DNA of 64,000 bases from Polyangiales bacterium. GTDB taxonomy: Bacteria; Myxococcota_A; Polyangia; Polyangiales; Ga0077539. Positions 6,007 to 41,400 of this stretch are shown in pieces. Position 1 is the first letter of the stretch; each line of letters starts with the position of its first letter. The DNA lies in assembly GCA_046351555.1 (NCBI GenBank), contig JAXLYI010000006.1:58284-122283 (forward strand). Reading direction: 5' to 3'. The notes under the pieces are model-generated. The model saw only the letters and a program-made list of their open reading frames with translations, was not told where the DNA came from and did no database searches. Both the position numbers and the translations under genes were made by a program.

Positions 6007-6630
6007 GTGGAACCGACTCAGCTCATCCTGGTGCTCGTCGTCATCGCCGCCTTCGGCCTCGCCGCGGCGATGGTGATGCGCTCGATCGACAAGCGCGACC
6101 GCCTCGCCCTCGACGCGCAGGTGCTCGCGCTCTGGGAGGCCCTCGCGCTGGCCCGCCACGACCTCCGCCTCGAGGTCAACGAGCGGGGCGAGCGCTTCCT
6201 CCACGGCACCGCGCGCGGCGTCCGCTACACGCTCTCCGTCCAGTCGCCGGGCCGCGGGTGGTCGGGCACGCTCGGCGCGACCGCGCGCGTCGCCCGCGAG
6301 CCCCCCGCGCGCCTGGTGGTGTGGCCCTCCAACGACCTGCCCGCCTGGGCCCCGCGCCTGCCGCGCGCGGTGAAGACGGGGCACGACGAGTTCGACCAGG
6401 TCTTCACGCTGCACACCGACGACGAGGCGCTCGCGCTCGCGGCCGTCGACGCCTCGGTGCGCGAGGCGCTGCTCGGCATCCCGGGCGCGGCGCTGGTGTG
6501 CGACGAGGGCAAGCTCACGCTGGTCACCGGCCTCGACGAGCGCCAGGTGGACGCCGAGCTCGTCGATCAGGTGCGCGCGGTGGTGGCGGGCGTGTGCGCG
6601 CCCCCTGAGGTCGCCGCGTCGGGCGCGTAG
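6007..6630 (+). CDS. single-pass membrane protein, function unknown
   Basis: The GTG start at 6007 gives VEPTQLILVLVVIAAFGLAAAMVMRS, a TM helix. The ORF track starts earlier at the ATG at 5962 (MRPCARGG..), which lacks an RBS. Coding-type composition. Confidence 0.45.
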   Translation: MEPTQLILVLVVIAAFGLAAAMVMRSIDKRDRLALDAQVLALWEALALARHDLRLEVNERGERFLHGTARGVRYTLSVQSPGRGWSGTLGATARVAREPPARLVVWPSNDLPAWAPRLPRAVKTGHDEFDQVFTLHTDDEALALAAVDASVREALLGIPGAALVCDEGKLTLVTGLDERQVDAELVDQVRAVVAGVCAPPEVAASGA

Positions 6631-6672
6631 CGCGCGGGCCCTGTACCGCCCGCGCGCCGACCGCGATGTCCC

Positions 6673-11668: not shown

Positions 11669-12358
11669 TCAGCCCGGCAGCTTCGCGAGCAGCCCGTCGG
11701 CCCAGTCGCGCAGGGCCTCCAGCTCGCCGCGCACCGCCGCCCGCTCGTCGTCGCTGCCGCCCTTCACCACGGTCACCGCCCGCCGCTGCCAGGCGCCCTT
11801 CGCCACCCGCTCACGGAAGCCGCGCACCTGCGCCGCCACCCGCGCCGGGGTGAGGCGAACCTCGCGCCCGCGCCCCTGCGCCTCGAGCACGCCCGCGACG
11901 TAGGCCCGCGTCGCCCGCTGCGTGAGCTTCATCGCGGTCACGTGCTGCGCGGCCTTGCGCATCGCGGCCTCGTCGCCGAGCGGGAGGAGCAGCTCCTTGC
12001 GCCCGGGCTCCAGGTTGCGCCACGCCTCGTCGGTGATCCGCTTGTCGTGCGCCGCGATGTGGAGCGCCACGTAGAGCAGCCGCTCGCTCAGCCGCAGCGT
12101 GGGCCCGCCCGCGCGGGACAGGAGCTCGCGCCACAGGGGGCTGTCGCGCCGCCCCTCCAGCGCCGCCGACGCGTCGTCGTCGAACACGTGGACCAGCAGC
12201 CAGCGCCCGTAGGAAACGAGCGCGTCCTCCATCACGTCGCGGGTCTCCTCCGCGCGGCGGAGCACCTCGGCGAGCACGCGCCGCTGGGCGGCGTCGAGGC
12301 TGTCGGGGGCGCGGCGGGCGAGCTCGGCGGAGGCGGCGGGGGCCTGCGGCTTCGTCAT
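11669..12358 (-). CDS. hypothetical cytoplasmic protein
   Basis: Clean 230-aa ORF with high GC3. The second Met (MTKPQ..) is preferred as the start. Confidence 0.45.
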   Translation of the reverse strand: MTKPQAPAASAELARRAPDSLDAAQRRVLAEVLRRAEETRDVMEDALVSYGRWLLVHVFDDDASAALEGRRDSPLWRELLSRAGGPTLRLSERLLYVALHIAAHDKRITDEAWRNLEPGRKELLLPLGDEAAMRKAAQHVTAMKLTQRATRAYVAGVLEAQGRGREVRLTPARVAAQVRGFRERVAKGAWQRRAVTVVKGGSDDERAAVRGELEALRDWADGLLAKLPG

Positions 12359-12450
12359 GAAACGCAACGCTACGCCCGCGGCGCGCGGAGGAGCAGAGGG
12401 AGCGCGCGGGGGCGGTGTCGCGGCGCCGGACAGGGCGTCCCGGTGGGGCG

Positions 12451-12475
12451 GAAGGCTATGGCGCCATAGTCTTCG
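12451..12475. repeat. left copy of a perfect 25-bp direct repeat gaaggctatggcgccatagtcttcg (contains the 14-bp palindrome ctatggcgccatag)
   Basis: The sequence is identical to 14364..14388 in the same orientation. It sits 13 bp beyond the abiEii stop. Confidence 0.85.
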
Positions 12476-12487
12476 GGGGGAGCCCCC

Positions 12488-13345
12488 TCACGGGTCGATG
12501 GGGAGCTCATCGACCAGCGCCAGGAGTTCGCTCCAGGCGTCGTCGAAGGCGACGAAGAGCGTCCGCGTGGTGCTCGCGAGCCCGTCGTAGTCCTGGGCCG
12601 CGCGGCGCTTCACCTCGGGGTCGCGAAACGCCGTGCGGGAGACGACGATGCCCCGTGCGGCGGACTTGCGGCGGAGGAAGTCCGCGACCTTGTCCGCGTC
12701 GAGCGGGCGCTGCCGGCGGGTGACCGCGATGTCGAGGAGGTCCTGGCGGCGGTAGCGGTTGCGCACGGGCTGCTGGAGCAACGAGCGCAGCTTCTCCGCG
12801 ACGATGTCCTCGCGCGAGCTCACGCGCAGCTTGTGGACGCCCGCGGTGTCGACCGGCTCGTCCTCGCACACCACCTCGTTGAGGCTCACGTCCAGAGGGA
12901 TCACCAGCGGGCTGGTCTGCCCGCCTTCGAGCCGCTTCCGCAGCGGGGCCTCGTCGGTGAGCGCGTAGCCGACGGAGACCGCGTAGGTGACGAAGGTGGC
13001 GTCGGGCGCGGGCGGCTGTCGCTTCACGCTGTGGACGCGGTAGAGCGTGCCGAGCTTCCGGCCCGTCGCGGCGAGGCTCTCCTGCAGGAGAGTCTTCAGT
13101 TCGTCGCCCTCCAGCGGGTCGGTCGAGGTGAAGTCGAGGTCCTTCGTGCTCCGGTTGGGCGACCACACGAAGTCGAGCGCGTTGCCGCCCTTGAGCACCA
13201 GCGTCGCGCTCAACTGGCGCGAGTCCGACACCGCCCGCAGGATGCCGTACTGCGCGAAGCGCGCCCGCGCCTCCTGCACCGTGACCTTGTTCGCCTTCGC
13301 CCACCCGCCGATGTCGAGGAAGGCGCGCGGGTACTTCTCGTTCAT
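12488..13345 (-). CDS. abiEii: AbiEii/AbiGii-family nucleotidyltransferase toxin (type IV TA / abortive infection, DUF1814)
   Basis: 285 aa. The N-terminal nucleotidyltransferase-like motifs are LVLKGGNALDF....KDLDF. There is a 4-bp overlap with the upstream abiEi-like gene. Size and architecture match AbiEii. Confidence 0.65.
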   Translation of the reverse strand: MNEKYPRAFLDIGGWAKANKVTVQEARARFAQYGILRAVSDSRQLSATLVLKGGNALDFVWSPNRSTKDLDFTSTDPLEGDELKTLLQESLAATGRKLGTLYRVHSVKRQPPAPDATFVTYAVSVGYALTDEAPLRKRLEGGQTSPLVIPLDVSLNEVVCEDEPVDTAGVHKLRVSSREDIVAEKLRSLLQQPVRNRYRRQDLLDIAVTRRQRPLDADKVADFLRRKSAARGIVVSRTAFRDPEVKRRAAQDYDGLASTTRTLFVAFDDAWSELLALVDELPIDP

Positions 13346-14247
13346 GGCTCACCCCTGCGGAGGAAGTCGACGGGGGCGTTGAGGGACAGGCTCCACCGCT
13401 CGTCGTAGGTCGGCGCGTAGGGGGCGCTCGCGCACAGTCGGCTGGACCCGCCGCGCTTCGCGCCCGCGCGCCACCGCTCGAGCGCCTCGTGCGTGAGCCC
13501 GAGGGCCTCCAGCACGAAGCCCGCGCGCTGCCGCAGGACGCCGACGTCGAGCTGGTCGACGACCCGCACGATCGCGGGGAGGTCGAGCAGGTCGCGCGAT
13601 TTCGCCCAGCCGCGCAGCACCGCGCCGATGCCGCCGCAGGCGTCGGGGTCGATGAGGCCGTCCACGAGCGTGCGCTCGGGGGTCGTGACTCGCAGCGACC
13701 ACCCCTCGGGCGCGTACTCCCCGACGCCCCCGAAGCGCTCGGGTTGCACGCGATGCCATCGCACCGGCCGCCCGAGGATCTCCGCAGGGAAGCGGGCCGG
13801 CGCCCGCGGGAGGTCGGCCCAGTCGTCGGGCGACGTCCCGGGCGGTACCCCGAAGTCGCCGCGCCCCGTCGGCACCGTCGCGTGGACCACCTTGGGTTGG
13901 TCGTCCGTGAGGTCGTGGAAGACCATCGCGGTGTGGTGGCTCGCCGCCACGCACGGCTGCGTCTCCATCAGCACCTCGAGTTCGCCGACGCCGCCGACGT
14001 CGGCGTAGGGGACGATCACCTCGTACACGCCGCCGACCCCCTCCAAGGGCCGCAGATCACCGGCGTTCACCATCCGGTCGAGCATCCGCTTCGCGTCGGC
14101 CACCGTCCTGGGGGGCTGCGGGCGTGAGGTCGGCCCCGCCTCGCGCACCGCCCGTTGGAGCAGGATCATGGCGCGCCAGTCGGAGACCACATGGCGCCGC
14201 TCCATCGCCAGTCGGTGCAGCAGGTCTCGGACGACGTTGACTCCCAA
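13342..14247 (-). CDS. abiEi: AbiEi-family antitoxin/transcriptional regulator (type IV TA system)
   Basis: About 300 aa. The N-terminus is winged-helix-like. It lies immediately upstream of, and overlaps (ATGA), the AbiEii-like gene. A palindromic operator sits in its promoter. Confidence 0.6.
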   Translation of the reverse strand: MGVNVVRDLLHRLAMERRHVVSDWRAMILLQRAVREAGPTSRPQPPRTVADAKRMLDRMVNAGDLRPLEGVGGVYEVIVPYADVGGVGELEVLMETQPCVAASHHTAMVFHDLTDDQPKVVHATVPTGRGDFGVPPGTSPDDWADLPRAPARFPAEILGRPVRWHRVQPERFGGVGEYAPEGWSLRVTTPERTLVDGLIDPDACGGIGAVLRGWAKSRDLLDLPAIVRVVDQLDVGVLRQRAGFVLEALGLTHEALERWRAGAKRGGSSRLCASAPYAPTYDERWSLSLNAPVDFLRRGEP

Positions 14248-14272
14248 AGATCTTGCCCCCCGCCCCGCGGCT

Positions 14273-14323
14273 TAGACTGTCGGCCTCAGGACGACAGTCT
14301 ACGCCGCGTCGAGGAAATGTCAA
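14273..14323 (-). promoter_or_regulatory. abiEi promoter (minus strand TTGACA-N16-TAGACT) with an overlapping perfect 10-bp inverted repeat tagactgtcg-N9-cgacagtcta (candidate AbiEi operator)
   Basis: The inverted repeat is at 14273..14282 and 14292..14301. The reverse complement of 14318..14323 is TTGACA, and the reverse complement of 14296..14301 is TAGACT. This leaves about 40 nt of 5' UTR before the abiEi start. Confidence 0.5.
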
Positions 14324-14363
14324 CTTTTGGCTACAACTTCGTCCGAGCGTTCCAGCGGGGCTG

Positions 14364-14388
14364 AAGGCTATGGCGCCATAGTCTTCGC
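14364..14388. repeat. right copy of the perfect 25-bp direct repeat gaaggctatggcgccatagtcttcg
   Basis: Identical to 12451..12475. It lies 11 bp from the stop of the convergent methyltransferase gene and just outside the abiEi promoter. Confidence 0.85.
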
Positions 14389-14398
14389 GCGGCCCCGC

Positions 14399-15232
14399 CT
14401 ACCCCGCGCGGGCGGTGAAGACCCACGCGGCGCTGTCGAGCGTGACGCCGCCGTCGCGCAGGTGAGCCCGCAGCGCCTCGCGCACTGCCTCGCGGACGCG
14501 CGGGACGAGGTGCGGGTTCTCGCGCGCGACCTGCCCGCACGGCCCGACCTGGAGCGACACCTCCAGCGCGTCGTCGGGGTCGCCGCCGCCCACGCGCATC
14601 GGAACATCGATCGCCTCGGCCGCGACGTCGCGGAAGCCCGCGCCCGACAGGATCGCGCGCACGCGGACGTCGTCGGCGAAGCCGAAGGGCCCCGGCGCGC
14701 CGGGCGGCGACGTCGACGGCGGCGCGTCGAGCAGCGGCGCGACGGCGGCGAGGGGGACGGTCATCCACGGGTTGAGCTCGGCGGCGCGCCACGCGACGAA
14801 GGCCACCGGCGCGCCGGGCGCGAGGGCCGCGTGGAGCCGCGCGAACGCCGCCGCCGGGTCGTCGAAGAACATCACCCCGAAGCGCGAGTAGAGCGCGTCG
14901 AAGCGGCCGTCGAACGCGTGCGTCTGCGCGTCGGCCTCGACGAAGGCGACGTCCGCGCGGCCGGCCGAACGCTCGCGGGCGCGGGCGAGCATCGGGGCGG
15001 AGACGTCGACCCCGAGCGCGAGCCCCGCGGGGCCCACGGCGTCGGCGAGACGGAGGGTGGTGTCGCCGCAGCCGCACCCGACGTCGAGAACGCGCATCCC
15101 CGCGGCGAGCGGCAGGCGCGCGAGGGCGGCGTCGCCGAAGGGGGCGAGCTGGGCGTCGAGGAGGCGCTGCATGGCGACCCAGCGGGGGCCTGAGCGCTCG
15201 TTCCAGTTGGCGATCTGGTCGGTGTTGTTCAT
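14399..15232 (-). CDS. class I SAM-dependent methyltransferase
   Basis: Motif I is VLDVGCGCGDTTLRLA. An acidic post-I loop and the downstream motifs are typical of Methyltransf_11/25 proteins. Confidence 0.7.
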   Translation of the reverse strand: MNNTDQIANWNERSGPRWVAMQRLLDAQLAPFGDAALARLPLAAGMRVLDVGCGCGDTTLRLADAVGPAGLALGVDVSAPMLARARERSAGRADVAFVEADAQTHAFDGRFDALYSRFGVMFFDDPAAAFARLHAALAPGAPVAFVAWRAAELNPWMTVPLAAVAPLLDAPPSTSPPGAPGPFGFADDVRVRAILSGAGFRDVAAEAIDVPMRVGGGDPDDALEVSLQVGPCGQVARENPHLVPRVREAVREALRAHLRDGGVTLDSAAWVFTARAG

Positions 15233-15319
15233 CGCGAGGGGCCGCGAGGATACACCCCGCGCGTCACCCGAGGAGGGCGACCCAACGCGCGTCCCCCACG
15301 ATCAACCACGTGACGGGCG

Positions 15320-15781
15320 TCACCGCAGCGCGGGCGTGCCGTCGGCCTCGCCGCACTCCAGCGCGTCGGCGGGCGCCTCGCGCATGGCGCCACGCAGCGA
15401 GACGGGGTCGCGGTTGACGCCCTCGTACGACCCGCGCAGGCGCGCGAGCAGCCCCGCGTCGTCGGCGCACACGCGCGCCGCGTCGCCCTCCTCGTCGACC
15501 GAGAAACGCGCCCCGCCGCGCGTGGCGTAGACGCTGCCGATCCACCCGGGGCCGGGGCTCTGCACCTCCGTGAAGGGCCCCAGGCGGCGCGCCAGCACGA
15601 GCACGATCGCGCCCCACGTCACGCCCCCGCCCTGGCATCGCCGCGACGCGAACAGCGCCCGCGTCGACGCGCTGTTCGCCGTGGCCGTGATGTCGAAGCA
15701 GGCGGGCGCGGCCTTGGGGCACCCCGCCTGTGCGACGGCGAGCAGGGCGACCGAGAGCAGGTGCAGGCGGGGCGTCGTCAC
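15320..15781 (-). CDS. small lipoprotein, function unknown
   Basis: The GTG start gives VTTPRLHLLSVALLAVAQAGC, a lipobox. The ORF track extends 41 codons further upstream without any signal-peptide logic. Confidence 0.4.
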   Translation of the reverse strand: MTTPRLHLLSVALLAVAQAGCPKAAPACFDITATANSASTRALFASRRCQGGGVTWGAIVLVLARRLGPFTEVQSPGPGWIGSVYATRGGARFSVDEEGDAARVCADDAGLLARLRGSYEGVNRDPVSLRGAMREAPADALECGEADGTPALR

Positions 15782-40261: not shown

Positions 40262-41400
40262 GGCGCGTCTCCTTCGGGGGGCAGCGAGGGCCCGGGGCCG
40301 CTCGGCGGGAGGGTGAGCGCGAAGGTGGCGCCGCCGCCCTCGCGACGTCGCGCGGCGAGCGCGCCGCCGTGGGCCTGGGCGATGCCGCGCGCGATGGCGA
40401 GGCCGAGCCCGACGCCGCCGCCGCCCGTGTGGAAGAAGCGTTCGAAGACGCGGGCCTCGGCGCCCTCGGGGAGCCCGGGGCCGCGGTCGGAGACCTCCAC
40501 CTCGACGCCGCCGTCGGGCAGCGCGCGGGCGGCGAGGTCGAGCGGGCTGGTGTGTGGTGTGTGGCGCGTGGCGTTGTCGAGGAGGTTGAAGAAGAGCTGC
40601 TCGAGGAGCACCGGGTCGACCGAGACGAGCGGGAGGTCGTCGGGGATCGCGACGCGCACGAACCGCCCGGCGAGCTTCGCGTCGAGGCGGGTGAGGGCCG
40701 AGCCCACGACCTCTTCGAGCGGGACCCACTCGCGGCGCACGGTGACGGCGCCCGACTCGAGGCGGGTCATGTCGAGGAGGTTGGCGATGAGGCGCTCCAT
40801 GCGCTCGGCCTCCTCGCAGATGGTAACGACCATCTCGTCGCGCTGGGCGGGGGCGAGGCCCGCGGCGTCGTCGCGGAGGGTGGTGGCGGCGCCGGTGATG
40901 GCGGCGAGGGGCGTGCGGAGGTCGTGCGAGACGGCGCTGAGGAGCGTGCTGCGGAGCTTCTCGGCCTGGGCCTCGACGGCGGCGGCGCGGGCCTCTTCGG
41001 CGAGGCGGGCGCGCTCGGCGGAGAGGGCGGCGGTGCGGGCCTCGCGGGCGTGGGCTTCGGCCTCGCTTCGGCGGAGGCGCAGGGTGAGCGCGGCGATGAC
41101 CTGGCCGATGACGAACATCGCGGCGAAGGTGACGAGGTGGCGCGGGTCGTCGACGGCGAAGGTGAAGCGGGGCGTGATGAAGAAGAAGTCGTAGGTGGCG
41201 ACGGAGAGGGCCGCGGCGAGCACCGAGGCGCCGCGGCCGAAGCGCGCGGCGGCGGCGACGATCACGAGGAGGTAGACCATCGCGGTGTCGGGCAGCGCGA
41301 GCCACGGGTGGGCGAGCCACGAGACGGCCGTGGCGAGCGCGACGAGGGCGGCGGCCTGCGGGTAGACGCTCCAGTGCGCGCGGGCGGGGGCGTCGCTCAT
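40258..41400 (-). CDS. sensor histidine kinase with a KdpD-type C-terminal module only (DUF4118-like membrane domain + HisKA + HATPase); the N-terminal KdpD/Usp sensing domains are absent
   Basis: Four N-terminal TM helices end with the conserved KdpD segment ...ATYDFFFI.PR.TF. The H-box is LLSAVSHDLRTPLAAI. The G-boxes are DRGPGLP...GGGVGLGLAIARGI. Only 380 aa, against about 890 for full KdpD. Confidence 0.75.

Follow-up and report, generated by a model that had tools for sequence, protein, structure and literature searches.

A Long Palindrome Over the Predicted Start Site of an abiE Operon Is a Candidate AbiEi Operator Whose Arms Covary Across Five Phyla

The subject of this study is the region upstream of an abiEi-abiEii gene pair in a 64,000-nucleotide (nt) stretch of the genome of a Polyangiales bacterium (assembly GCA_046351555.1, contig JAXLYI010000006.1; hereafter the window, to whose numbering our coordinates refer). 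We consider that positions 14226-14347 are probably the promoter-operator of this bicistronic type IV toxin-antitoxin/abortive-infection operon, judging from its sequence and from characterized relatives, and that the long palindrome at its center would be the operator through which the AbiEi antitoxin regulates itself. We read the palindrome as the site at which the antitoxin shuts off its own operon because it sits on the predicted abiE start site and recurs before related operons in five phyla. A preliminary description of the locus had proposed an operator plus a promoter, and every part of that proposal that is computationally testable holds, namely the gene pair, the conservation in five phyla, the linkage to AbiEi genes and the existence of a precedent; that AbiEi is the binder, that it represses transcription and where transcription starts are points that we infer.

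Results

The Palindrome in the Window

The preliminary description had centered on a perfect 10-bp inverted repeat, tagactgtcg (14273-14282) and cgacagtcta (14292-14301) with 9 nt between them, and the letters of the sequence bear this out. The 10-bp arms are real but the element was under-described: its arms are 21 nt long, its core lies inside what had been taken as a spacer, and an outer repeat pair and two mutations confined to single arms were missed. The 10-bp repeat by itself is not above chance in this GC-rich window, where six perfect 10-bp inverted repeats with loops of up to 20 nt are present versus 13.8 +/- 3.8 in first-order Markov shuffles. The other five, all GC-rich, have arms that measure 10-14 nt and loops that measure 8-19 nt, and lie at 1715-1761, 15648-15679, 2491-2525, 6630-6657 and 41209-41238.

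The full 21-N1-21 quasi-palindrome, in contrast, is the sole one in the window and was matched in none of 30 shuffles. In gene orientation it reads CGCGGCGTAGACTGTCGTCCT g AGGCCGACAGTCTAAGCCGCG, and 19 of its 21 pairs were scored as complementary by the repeat finder (90%); as single-stranded DNA it folds with an energy of -20.4 kcal/mol (z = -6.6). No further core or TAGACTGTCG site was found in the window, and the TAGACTGTCG motif is not over-represented there. The local dip in GC content that had been remarked upon earlier is also real: 14250-14347 has 60%, the abiE coding sequence 72% and the window as a whole 75.7%.

Conservation of Symmetry in Related abiE Loci

What is conserved in related loci, the sequence of the palindrome or its symmetry? 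A genome scan with the family alignment gave 67 loci, 58 of them with usable upstream sequence, in which we searched up to 260 nt upstream of the abiEi start for the best palindrome around a single central base. A best palindrome with at least 18 of 21 pairs is present in ~53 of the 58 homologous abiEi loci, most of these palindromes being perfect, and ends 15-25 nt before the abiEi start. The loci that bear it belong to five phyla: Myxococcota, Chloroflexota, Acidobacteriota, Planctomycetota and Actinomycetota (the last through one Microbacteriaceae bin).

When 60 palindrome copies were aligned gap-free, offsets 1-5 from the dyad (TCCTG / AGGAC) proved invariant apart from position 14283 of the window, and offset 6 was C/T paired with G/A, an invariance at offsets 1-6 that is partly circular in that the copies were picked by the core pattern, although the unbiased best-palindrome scan gave the same core. 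The information content of offsets 7-19 is 0-0.6 bit, and each of these positions is nonetheless complementary in 96-100% of the copies; at offsets 20-21 the complementary fraction is 0.62, and farther out it is at background level. All four Watson-Crick types occur at every pair of offsets 6-19 with essentially no one-sided changes, and the covariation score is 0.84, versus 0.19 when shuffled and 0.10-0.18 when the partner is slid. Fully 51 of the 60 copies are perfect over offsets 1-19, the window being one of two copies with two mismatches, and nearest-neighbor comparisons gave 154 compensated versus 22 single-arm differences. G-T mismatches occupy 6 of ~1140 cells. The dyad base (14287 in the window) is A or T in 41 of 52 copies with no strand preference, as expected of a property of the duplex and not of a purine preference at a start site. 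As hairpins, the copies have DNA folding energies of -20 to -27 kcal/mol (z = -6.6 to -10.7).

Association With AbiEi Genes

Is a long palindrome of this type specific for AbiEi genes? An exact scan of a metagenome collection for GTCGTCCTNAGGACGAC returned 120 stretches whose arm lengths are bimodal, with 94 copies having arms of 8-11 nt (the query itself) and 26 having arms of 18-36 nt. An AbiEi-family open reading frame (ORF) was present in the locus of none of the 94 short-arm copies, whereas 21 of the 26 long-arm copies lie directly upstream of one with the correct orientation; a contig end truncates another two. That long arms are nearly always next to AbiEi, and short arms never, leads to the conclusion that the long palindrome is a marker of the AbiEi gene family and not a generic repeat. 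At least 80 independent loci show the element to be conserved and to covary.

The remaining three of the 26 long palindromes with the GTCGTCCTNAGGACGAC core have no AbiEi gene nearby (L091, 2817; L179, 479; L116, 1535). The L179 palindrome is in a locally repetitive region, and that of L116, whose arms are 36 nt and end at the contig end, may be an assembly artefact.

The Promoter

The promoter that had been proposed earlier, a minus-strand TTGACA-N16-TAGACT in front of abiEi with the repeat overlapping its -10, stands: TTGACA is at 14323-14318 and TAGACT at 14301-14296. This is the only sigma-70-like match in 12000-15500 (one versus 0.1 expected), and it agrees with the consensus at 10 of 12 positions. 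Related copies share the arrangement, with a TTGACA-like -35 (at least 5/6) located 16-17 nt upstream of TAnnnT and directed towards abiEi in 45 of 60. A promoter in the reverse direction, built on the mirrored -10, was rejected as it lacks a -35 (a -35 of at least 5/6 accompanied the mirrored -10 in 1 of 60 copies).

Among the related copies, the TAnnnT -10 in the upstream arm is 3-8 nt from the dyad in 39 and 14 nt from it in 11. From these distances transcription is predicted to start ~2 nt or less from the dyad in most loci, the window included, and the palindrome would therefore span ~-20 to +20, the classical position of a repressor that blocks open-complex formation.

The abiEi-abiEii Operon and Its Protein Family

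The stop codon of abiEi and the start codon of abiEii overlap as ATGA at 13342-13345, a bicistronic arrangement. The abiEii product matches PF08843 of Pfam (E=4.4e-22) and the AbiEii profile of PADLOC (E=1.5e-64), and the abiEi product matches the PADLOC AbiEi profile end to end (E=1.9e-35). Pfam AbiEi_1 scored 19.3 bits on the abiEi product, under its cut-off of 22.2, and an NCBIfam search gave no match for AbiEi, AbiEii or a downstream 232-aa ORF; we regard this AbiEi as a member of a divergent subfamily because of the sub-cut-off Pfam score and the lack of an NCBIfam match. More than 160 homologs of ~300 aa exist, some of which carry the source name "type IV toxin-antitoxin system AbiEi family antitoxin."

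An AF2 (AlphaFold) model of the abiEi product (predicted local distance difference test score, pLDDT, 88.7) has a winged helix at its N-terminus, in the order H-S-H-H-S-S. Its best Foldseek match in the PDB is Streptococcus agalactiae AbiEi (6Y8Q, E=1e-7), and Mycobacterium tuberculosis Rv2827c (1ZEL, E=2e-6, template modeling (TM) score 0.53-0.55) gives the best full-length overlap. The fold search was needed here, as a sequence-based PDB profile search gave a marginal match to 6Y8Q only (E=0.009). On the model, the abiEi product is a COG5340-type AbiEi with the AbiEi/Rv2827c fold. The abiEi start at 14247 is sound, because the homologs share this start position and a relative, L002, has ATG at the position of the window's TTG. 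No second AbiEi gene was found in the 64-kb window.

The 232-aa ORF (11669-12367, minus strand) lies directly downstream of the abiE cassette and is without a Pfam, NCBIfam or PADLOC match. In L190, a relative 81% identical, abiEii was called in two pieces (39 aa + 238 aa; 1070-1925), which suggests that its toxin gene is frameshifted or decaying next to an intact abiEi and a perfect operator.

Outer Repeat Pair and Mutations in the Window Copy

The central palindrome is enclosed by an outer inverted repeat, 14226-14249 / 14324-14347, of 24 nt and 79% complementarity, whose center is no more than 1 nt from the dyad. Its arms contain GGACGA and TCGTCC, which repeat the core half-site. Across 54 loci, GAC(G/A) occurs at -56 in 11 and (C/T)GTC at +55/+56 in 18, against a background of ~0.6-0.65 per position, and the enrichment is limited to Myxococcota and Planctomycetota clades. 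The downstream outer element falls in codons 4-8 of abiEi and is kept as DNA across reading frames, being translated as NVVRD in the clade of the window and as TFASK in Singulisphaera; that the DNA is kept despite different frames and amino acids argues for constraint at the nucleic-acid level. By analogy with the four repeats of the Rv2827c promoter Prv2827c (PMC7319586), the outer pair probably represents auxiliary half-sites.

The closest relative found, L188, has 98% protein identity and a perfect palindrome with 21-nt arms (GGCGGCTTAGACTGTCGTCCT C AGGACGACAGTCTAAGCCGCC), relative to which the window differs by one substitution in each arm (Table 1). The pair 14283/14291 is the only unpaired cell of its column, all 59 other copies having T:A. 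From the comparison of sequences, both substitutions (14283 and 14302) look like recent, uncorrected mutations. With two mutations in single arms, one of them in the core, the window operator may be slightly weakened at one half-site; abiEi and abiEii are both intact in the window despite these substitutions.

Table 1. Coordinates of the abiE genes and of the promoter and repeat features upstream of them
Feature	Position	Strand	Description
abiEii	12488..13345	minus	285 aa; DUF1814 nucleotidyltransferase toxin; ATG overlaps abiEi stop
abiEi	13342..14247	minus	301 aa; TTG start; winged-helix N-terminal domain and AbiEi C-terminal domain
Outer downstream arm	14226..14249		start codon and codons 1-7 of abiEi; gene orientation CTTTGGGAGTCAACGTCGTCCGAG; TCGTCC at 14234-14229, ~56 nt downstream of dyad
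Shine-Dalgarno-like G-rich run	14256..14261	minus	8 nt before TTG; read from sequence only
Central 21-N1-21 quasi-palindrome, candidate AbiEi operator	14266..14308		arms 14266-14286 / 14288-14308; dyad 14287
Perfect 10-N9-10 inverted repeat	14273..14301		arm offsets 5-14 of the larger palindrome
Family-invariant core (C/T)GTCCT-N-AGGAC(G/A)	14281..14293		+ strand of window CGGCCTCAGGACG; one core mismatch, at 14283
One-arm substitution	14283		+ strand G vs T in relatives; breaks invariant core; downstream arm
Predicted transcription start	14286..14289	minus	7-10 nt past -10, <=2 nt from dyad; from promoter geometry
-10 hexamer TAGACT	14296..14301	minus	inside upstream arm of palindrome; spacer 16 nt
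One-arm substitution	14302		+ strand C vs A in L188; offset 15; upstream arm, just 5' of -10
-35 hexamer TTGACA	14318..14323	minus	consensus scan and equivalent position in relatives
Outer upstream arm	14324..14347		gene orientation CTCGGACGAAGTTGTAGCCAAAAG; GGACGA at 14344-14339, ~56 nt upstream of dyad

Tandem Modules and Flanking Direct Repeats

Some Planctomycetota loci carry tandem palindrome-promoter modules ~140 nt apart (L033, 1705/1847; L034, 391/528; L039, 663/803; L045, 2814/2955; L046, 2802/2940; L062, 2777/2940), which differ in arm type, GATAATGTCCT... upstream and CGTCGTCCT... proximal. The spacers between the modules of these loci contain no ORF and no sequence conservation, often have a terminator-like hairpin and, in L033, a T-run. 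Given spacers without an ORF and often with such a hairpin, the upstream module may drive a short non-coding transcript. In Terracidiphilus (L012, 2689/2951; L014, 2709/2952) a second palindrome lies 243-262 nt upstream and is followed by a degenerate abiEi 5' end with in-frame stops, and we therefore regard it as the remnant of a tandem duplication of the promoter and 5' region.

The abiE cassette of the window, with a GC content of 72% relative to 75.7% for the window, is bracketed by a 54-nt direct repeat (12435-12488 and 14347-14400; 83% identical) that has a perfect 24-nt core, the near-palindrome GAAGGCTATGGCGCCATAGTCTTC, and is present in only these two copies in the 64 kb. Both copies begin at the stop codon of the minus-strand gene before them, which is abiEii in one case and a methyltransferase gene (14399-15232) in the other. 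An exact search for CTATGGCGCCATAG, the 14-bp center of the 24-nt core, found no copy in the 67 genome loci; by eye, L188 is seen to have a near-identical copy of the flank repeat upstream of its abiEi, and L002 a related copy on the downstream side of its abiEii. DNA homology to L001 stops exactly at the abiEii stop codon. The 54-nt repeats may represent the scar of an insertion or an element associated with the cassette; a recombinase is absent.

Discussion

How would such an element work? In the mechanism that we propose, a minus-strand sigma-70-type promoter, TTGACA-16-TAGACT, would start transcription at ~14286-14289, and two copies of AbiEi would most likely bind the two arms through their N-terminal winged helices, anchored on GTCCT-N-AGGAC. 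The conserved RRVVSDWR motif of the protein is a candidate for contact with the core. Bound AbiEi would occlude the -10 and the start site, resulting in negative autoregulation. The symmetry of the arms is best ascribed to concerted evolution, probably by hairpin-templated "quasi-palindrome correction" in replication, atop selection for a two-fold symmetric site. The fixed register of the palindrome across phyla points to AbiEi, the protein invariably found with the element, as the binder.

Several of our observations weigh against this scheme in its simplest form. The half-site sequence is unrelated to the repeat bound by S. agalactiae AbiEi, and the conserved half-sites abut the dyad, ~6-7 bp apart center to center, which is unusually close for two helix-turn-helix domains. 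The outer sites are found only in Myxococcota and Planctomycetota clades, and one of them is within coding sequence. Further, the arms differ, with compensation, between relatives that have an identical or near-identical helix-3 segment (L004/L050, L012/L014), and the similarity of arms between loci correlates with that of the N-terminal domain at 0.26 and with that of the C-terminal domain at 0.23 (Spearman), in a test that phylogeny confounds. Co-evolution of protein and operator was accordingly rejected as an account of the arms, the signal being weak, equal for both domains and not specific to the DNA-binding domain. As the changes in the arms do not track the recognition helix, reading of the arms base by base by a co-evolving winged helix is doubtful; most of each arm is probably not read in this way, and there is therefore room for a structure-based role. 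Equally, were nothing of the arms read, their symmetry would be expected to decay, and it does not.

What, then, keeps the arms symmetric? Protein recognition alone does not explain the combination of strict symmetry, unchanged recognition helices and near-absent G-T pairs, and two explanations remain: selection for intrastrand pairing and concerted evolution by template switching, of which we favor the latter. Template switching turns quasi-palindromes into perfect ones (Klaric et al., 2020; PMC7202029), and a role in keeping perfect repeats intact in Proteobacteria has been suggested for it (Lavi et al., 2018; PMC5941160). The abiE palindromes resemble the repeats of those studies in that their arms stay complementary as the sequence drifts and that the rare single-arm mismatches look recent, as in the comparison of the window with L188. 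They are unlike them in being 39-51-bp palindromes of fixed length, linked to a single gene family and a single place in the promoter, rather than short generic repeats. We favor template-switch correction superimposed on a symmetric operator, the arms of which, at ~20 bp each, agree in length with the ~23-bp units bound by characterized AbiEi proteins.

Could the palindrome instead act by pairing of the DNA within each strand? A cruciform or hairpin would bury the -10 and create a switch that is sensitive to supercoiling, replication or nucleases, with AbiEi perhaps recognizing the extruded form instead of, or besides, a duplex operator. The strict Watson-Crick pairing at 14 positions per arm with almost no sequence conservation, the compensation of changes between close relatives whose predicted recognition helix is unchanged, the scarcity of G-T pairs, the sharp limit of arm length to 19-21 nt across phyla, the prevalence of A or T at the dyad and the low hairpin energies are all in its favor. 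However, the center, TCCTNAGGA, is not AT-rich, 43 bp is short for efficient cruciform extrusion in vivo, imperfect copies persist beside intact genes (in the window, L034 and L050), and ~20 bp per arm is what the footprint of known AbiEi proteins occupies. Moreover, template-switch correction can hold the arms identical without any structural selection (PMC5941160, PMC7202029). Overall, we think it unlikely that pairing of the DNA is how the palindrome works, although this is the chief competitor of our reading, and similarly unlikely that an extruded hairpin or cruciform at the abiE start is the functional form, with AbiEi reading GTCCT-N-AGGAC at its apex. Were this nevertheless so, the locus would be a natural structure-controlled promoter with its state set by supercoiling, replication or the junction-cutting nucleases of phages; alterations that phages cause in DNA topology or integrity could then be linked to a loss of antitoxin synthesis. 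Horwitz and Loeb reportedly engineered, in 1988, a cruciform-controlled promoter in Escherichia coli; as there, a palindrome that includes the -10 region could leave the duplex on extrusion, but that system is artificial.

Far less probable still is a role of the palindrome as an RNA hairpin, whether in the leader of abiE, in a read-through transcript or in an antisense transcript, where it would serve as a terminator, processing site or translational element. A conserved apex on a covarying stem is the usual signature of structured RNA; with the -10 at 14 nt from the dyad, as in 11 of the 60 copies, a 7-bp hairpin would be transcribed at the 5' terminus; and in the tandem loci RNA initiated at the first promoter would extend across the second palindrome. 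In most copies, however, the positions of the conserved -35 and -10 predict a start no more than 2 nt from the dyad, with only one arm transcribed. G-U pairs, which RNA stems tolerate, are near-absent, the symmetry continues to a single central base, there is no U-tract, and a scan of 12000-15500 revealed no terminator-like site. A scan of 12300-14500 against Rfam (E<=1) gave only a chance microRNA match inside the abiEi coding sequence, at 26.5 bits versus a gathering score of 96, and the window's predicted 5' untranslated region (5' UTR) shows no unusual degree of structure (z = +0.85). It is the single transcribed arm, the lack of G-U pairs, the single-base center, the missing U-tract and Rfam match and the unstructured 5' UTR that make an RNA hairpin unlikely. 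The predicted fold of the 5' UTR likewise speaks against base pairing between the 5' end and the TCGTCC element downstream.

A host protein or another regulator might bind the palindrome, or the palindrome might be a site of recombination or mobility of the cassette. In keeping with this, the 54-nt direct repeats that bracket the cassette of the window suggest mobility, no AbiEi gene is near two or three of the long palindromes that share the core (L091, L179, L116), and the core CCTNAGG resembles a dimer site of the type II restriction kind. Against it stands the fixed register with the -35, the -10 and the abiEi start in five phyla and in very different genomic backgrounds. The flanking repeats, for their part, are of different sequence and lie outside the promoter, and the cassette encodes no recombinase; we hold this alternative to be very improbable. 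Negligible, in our estimate, is the chance that an inverted repeat merely happens to lie beside a promoter-like match. Perfect 10-bp repeats are indeed no commoner than in shuffles and TAGACTGTCG is not over-represented, but the 21-nt arms are unique in the window and the element is conserved with covariation. Chance juxtaposition was already refuted by the conservation between loci, the covariation and the AbiEi-linked metagenome copies.

The autoregulatory operator that we propose has its nearest precedent in the abiE promoter of S. agalactiae, PabiE, where AbiEi binds TGTTGCTTTTATACCACAAATAT-N3-AAAATTGTAGTGTAAAAGCAACA (23-N3-23) over its own promoter and represses it, the toxin not being needed (PMC3985639). 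According to the summary of Hampton et al. (2018) given in PMC7319586, two AbiEi monomers bind there cooperatively and bend the DNA. PabiE (Dy et al., 2014; PMC3985639) likewise has a long inverted repeat with ~20 bp per arm over the core promoter of a bicistronic abiEi-abiEii operon, and similar repeats were reported before related loci, as they are here for ~53 of 58 genome loci and 21-23 metagenome loci. The proteins have the same two-domain fold; binding by two AbiEi and negative autoregulation were shown for S. agalactiae and would apply here by extension. There are also differences. The repeat TGTTGCTTTTATACCACAAATAT bears no resemblance to GTCCT-N-AGGAC with its variable arms, a clade-specific trait that does not define the mechanism. 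In S. agalactiae the 11 bp that are best conserved lie at the outer ends, and the arms mismatch at four positions; in our family the invariant stretch adjoins the dyad, and most copies have perfect arms. There the dyad falls between the -35 and the -10, the former being in IR1; here it falls on the predicted start, with the -10 in the upstream arm. Spacers measure 3 nt there and 1 nt here, and the proteins 195 aa and ~300 aa, respectively.

Prv2827c of M. tuberculosis (MenA4/MenT4) offers a second comparison. Rv2827c is an AbiEi-family antitoxin of ~295 aa that is among the top structural matches of our model, and it binds four 23-bp repeats in a non-cooperative or negatively cooperative manner (Beck et al., 2020; PMC7319586). 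Those repeat units extend over ~130 bp around the promoter, which can be compared with the central pair and the outer pair at +/-56 here. They form two tandem pairs with 13-bp gaps, however, whereas our candidate sites consist of a tight central palindrome inside a weaker concentric pair with one arm in coding sequence. Operators of type II toxin-antitoxin systems are similar in placing a palindrome over the promoter (-10/+1) of their own operon for negative feedback, but they are usually shorter, imperfect and conserved in sequence among orthologs, and their toxin is a co-repressor, which was not seen for AbiE (PMC3985639).

In the literature that we searched we found no description of the GTCCT-N-AGGAC palindrome family. 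The control that we propose is of a known kind, and the strict symmetry without conserved sequence is the one feature that a specialist might find surprising. A palindrome of ~40 bp whose sequence drifts while its symmetry is kept is an unusually clean natural case, and the family is suited to separating protein recognition, DNA structure and template-switch concerted evolution as causes of palindrome maintenance. For annotation, a long palindrome around GTCCT-N-AGGAC marks this clade of AbiE and the true start codon of abiEi. Our analysis provides an operator-promoter model, comprising a core, arms of fixed length, a dyad on the predicted start and probable auxiliary half-sites, for a large uncharacterized AbiEi clade of soil and aquatic phyla, from which electrophoretic mobility shift, reporter and structural experiments can be designed directly.

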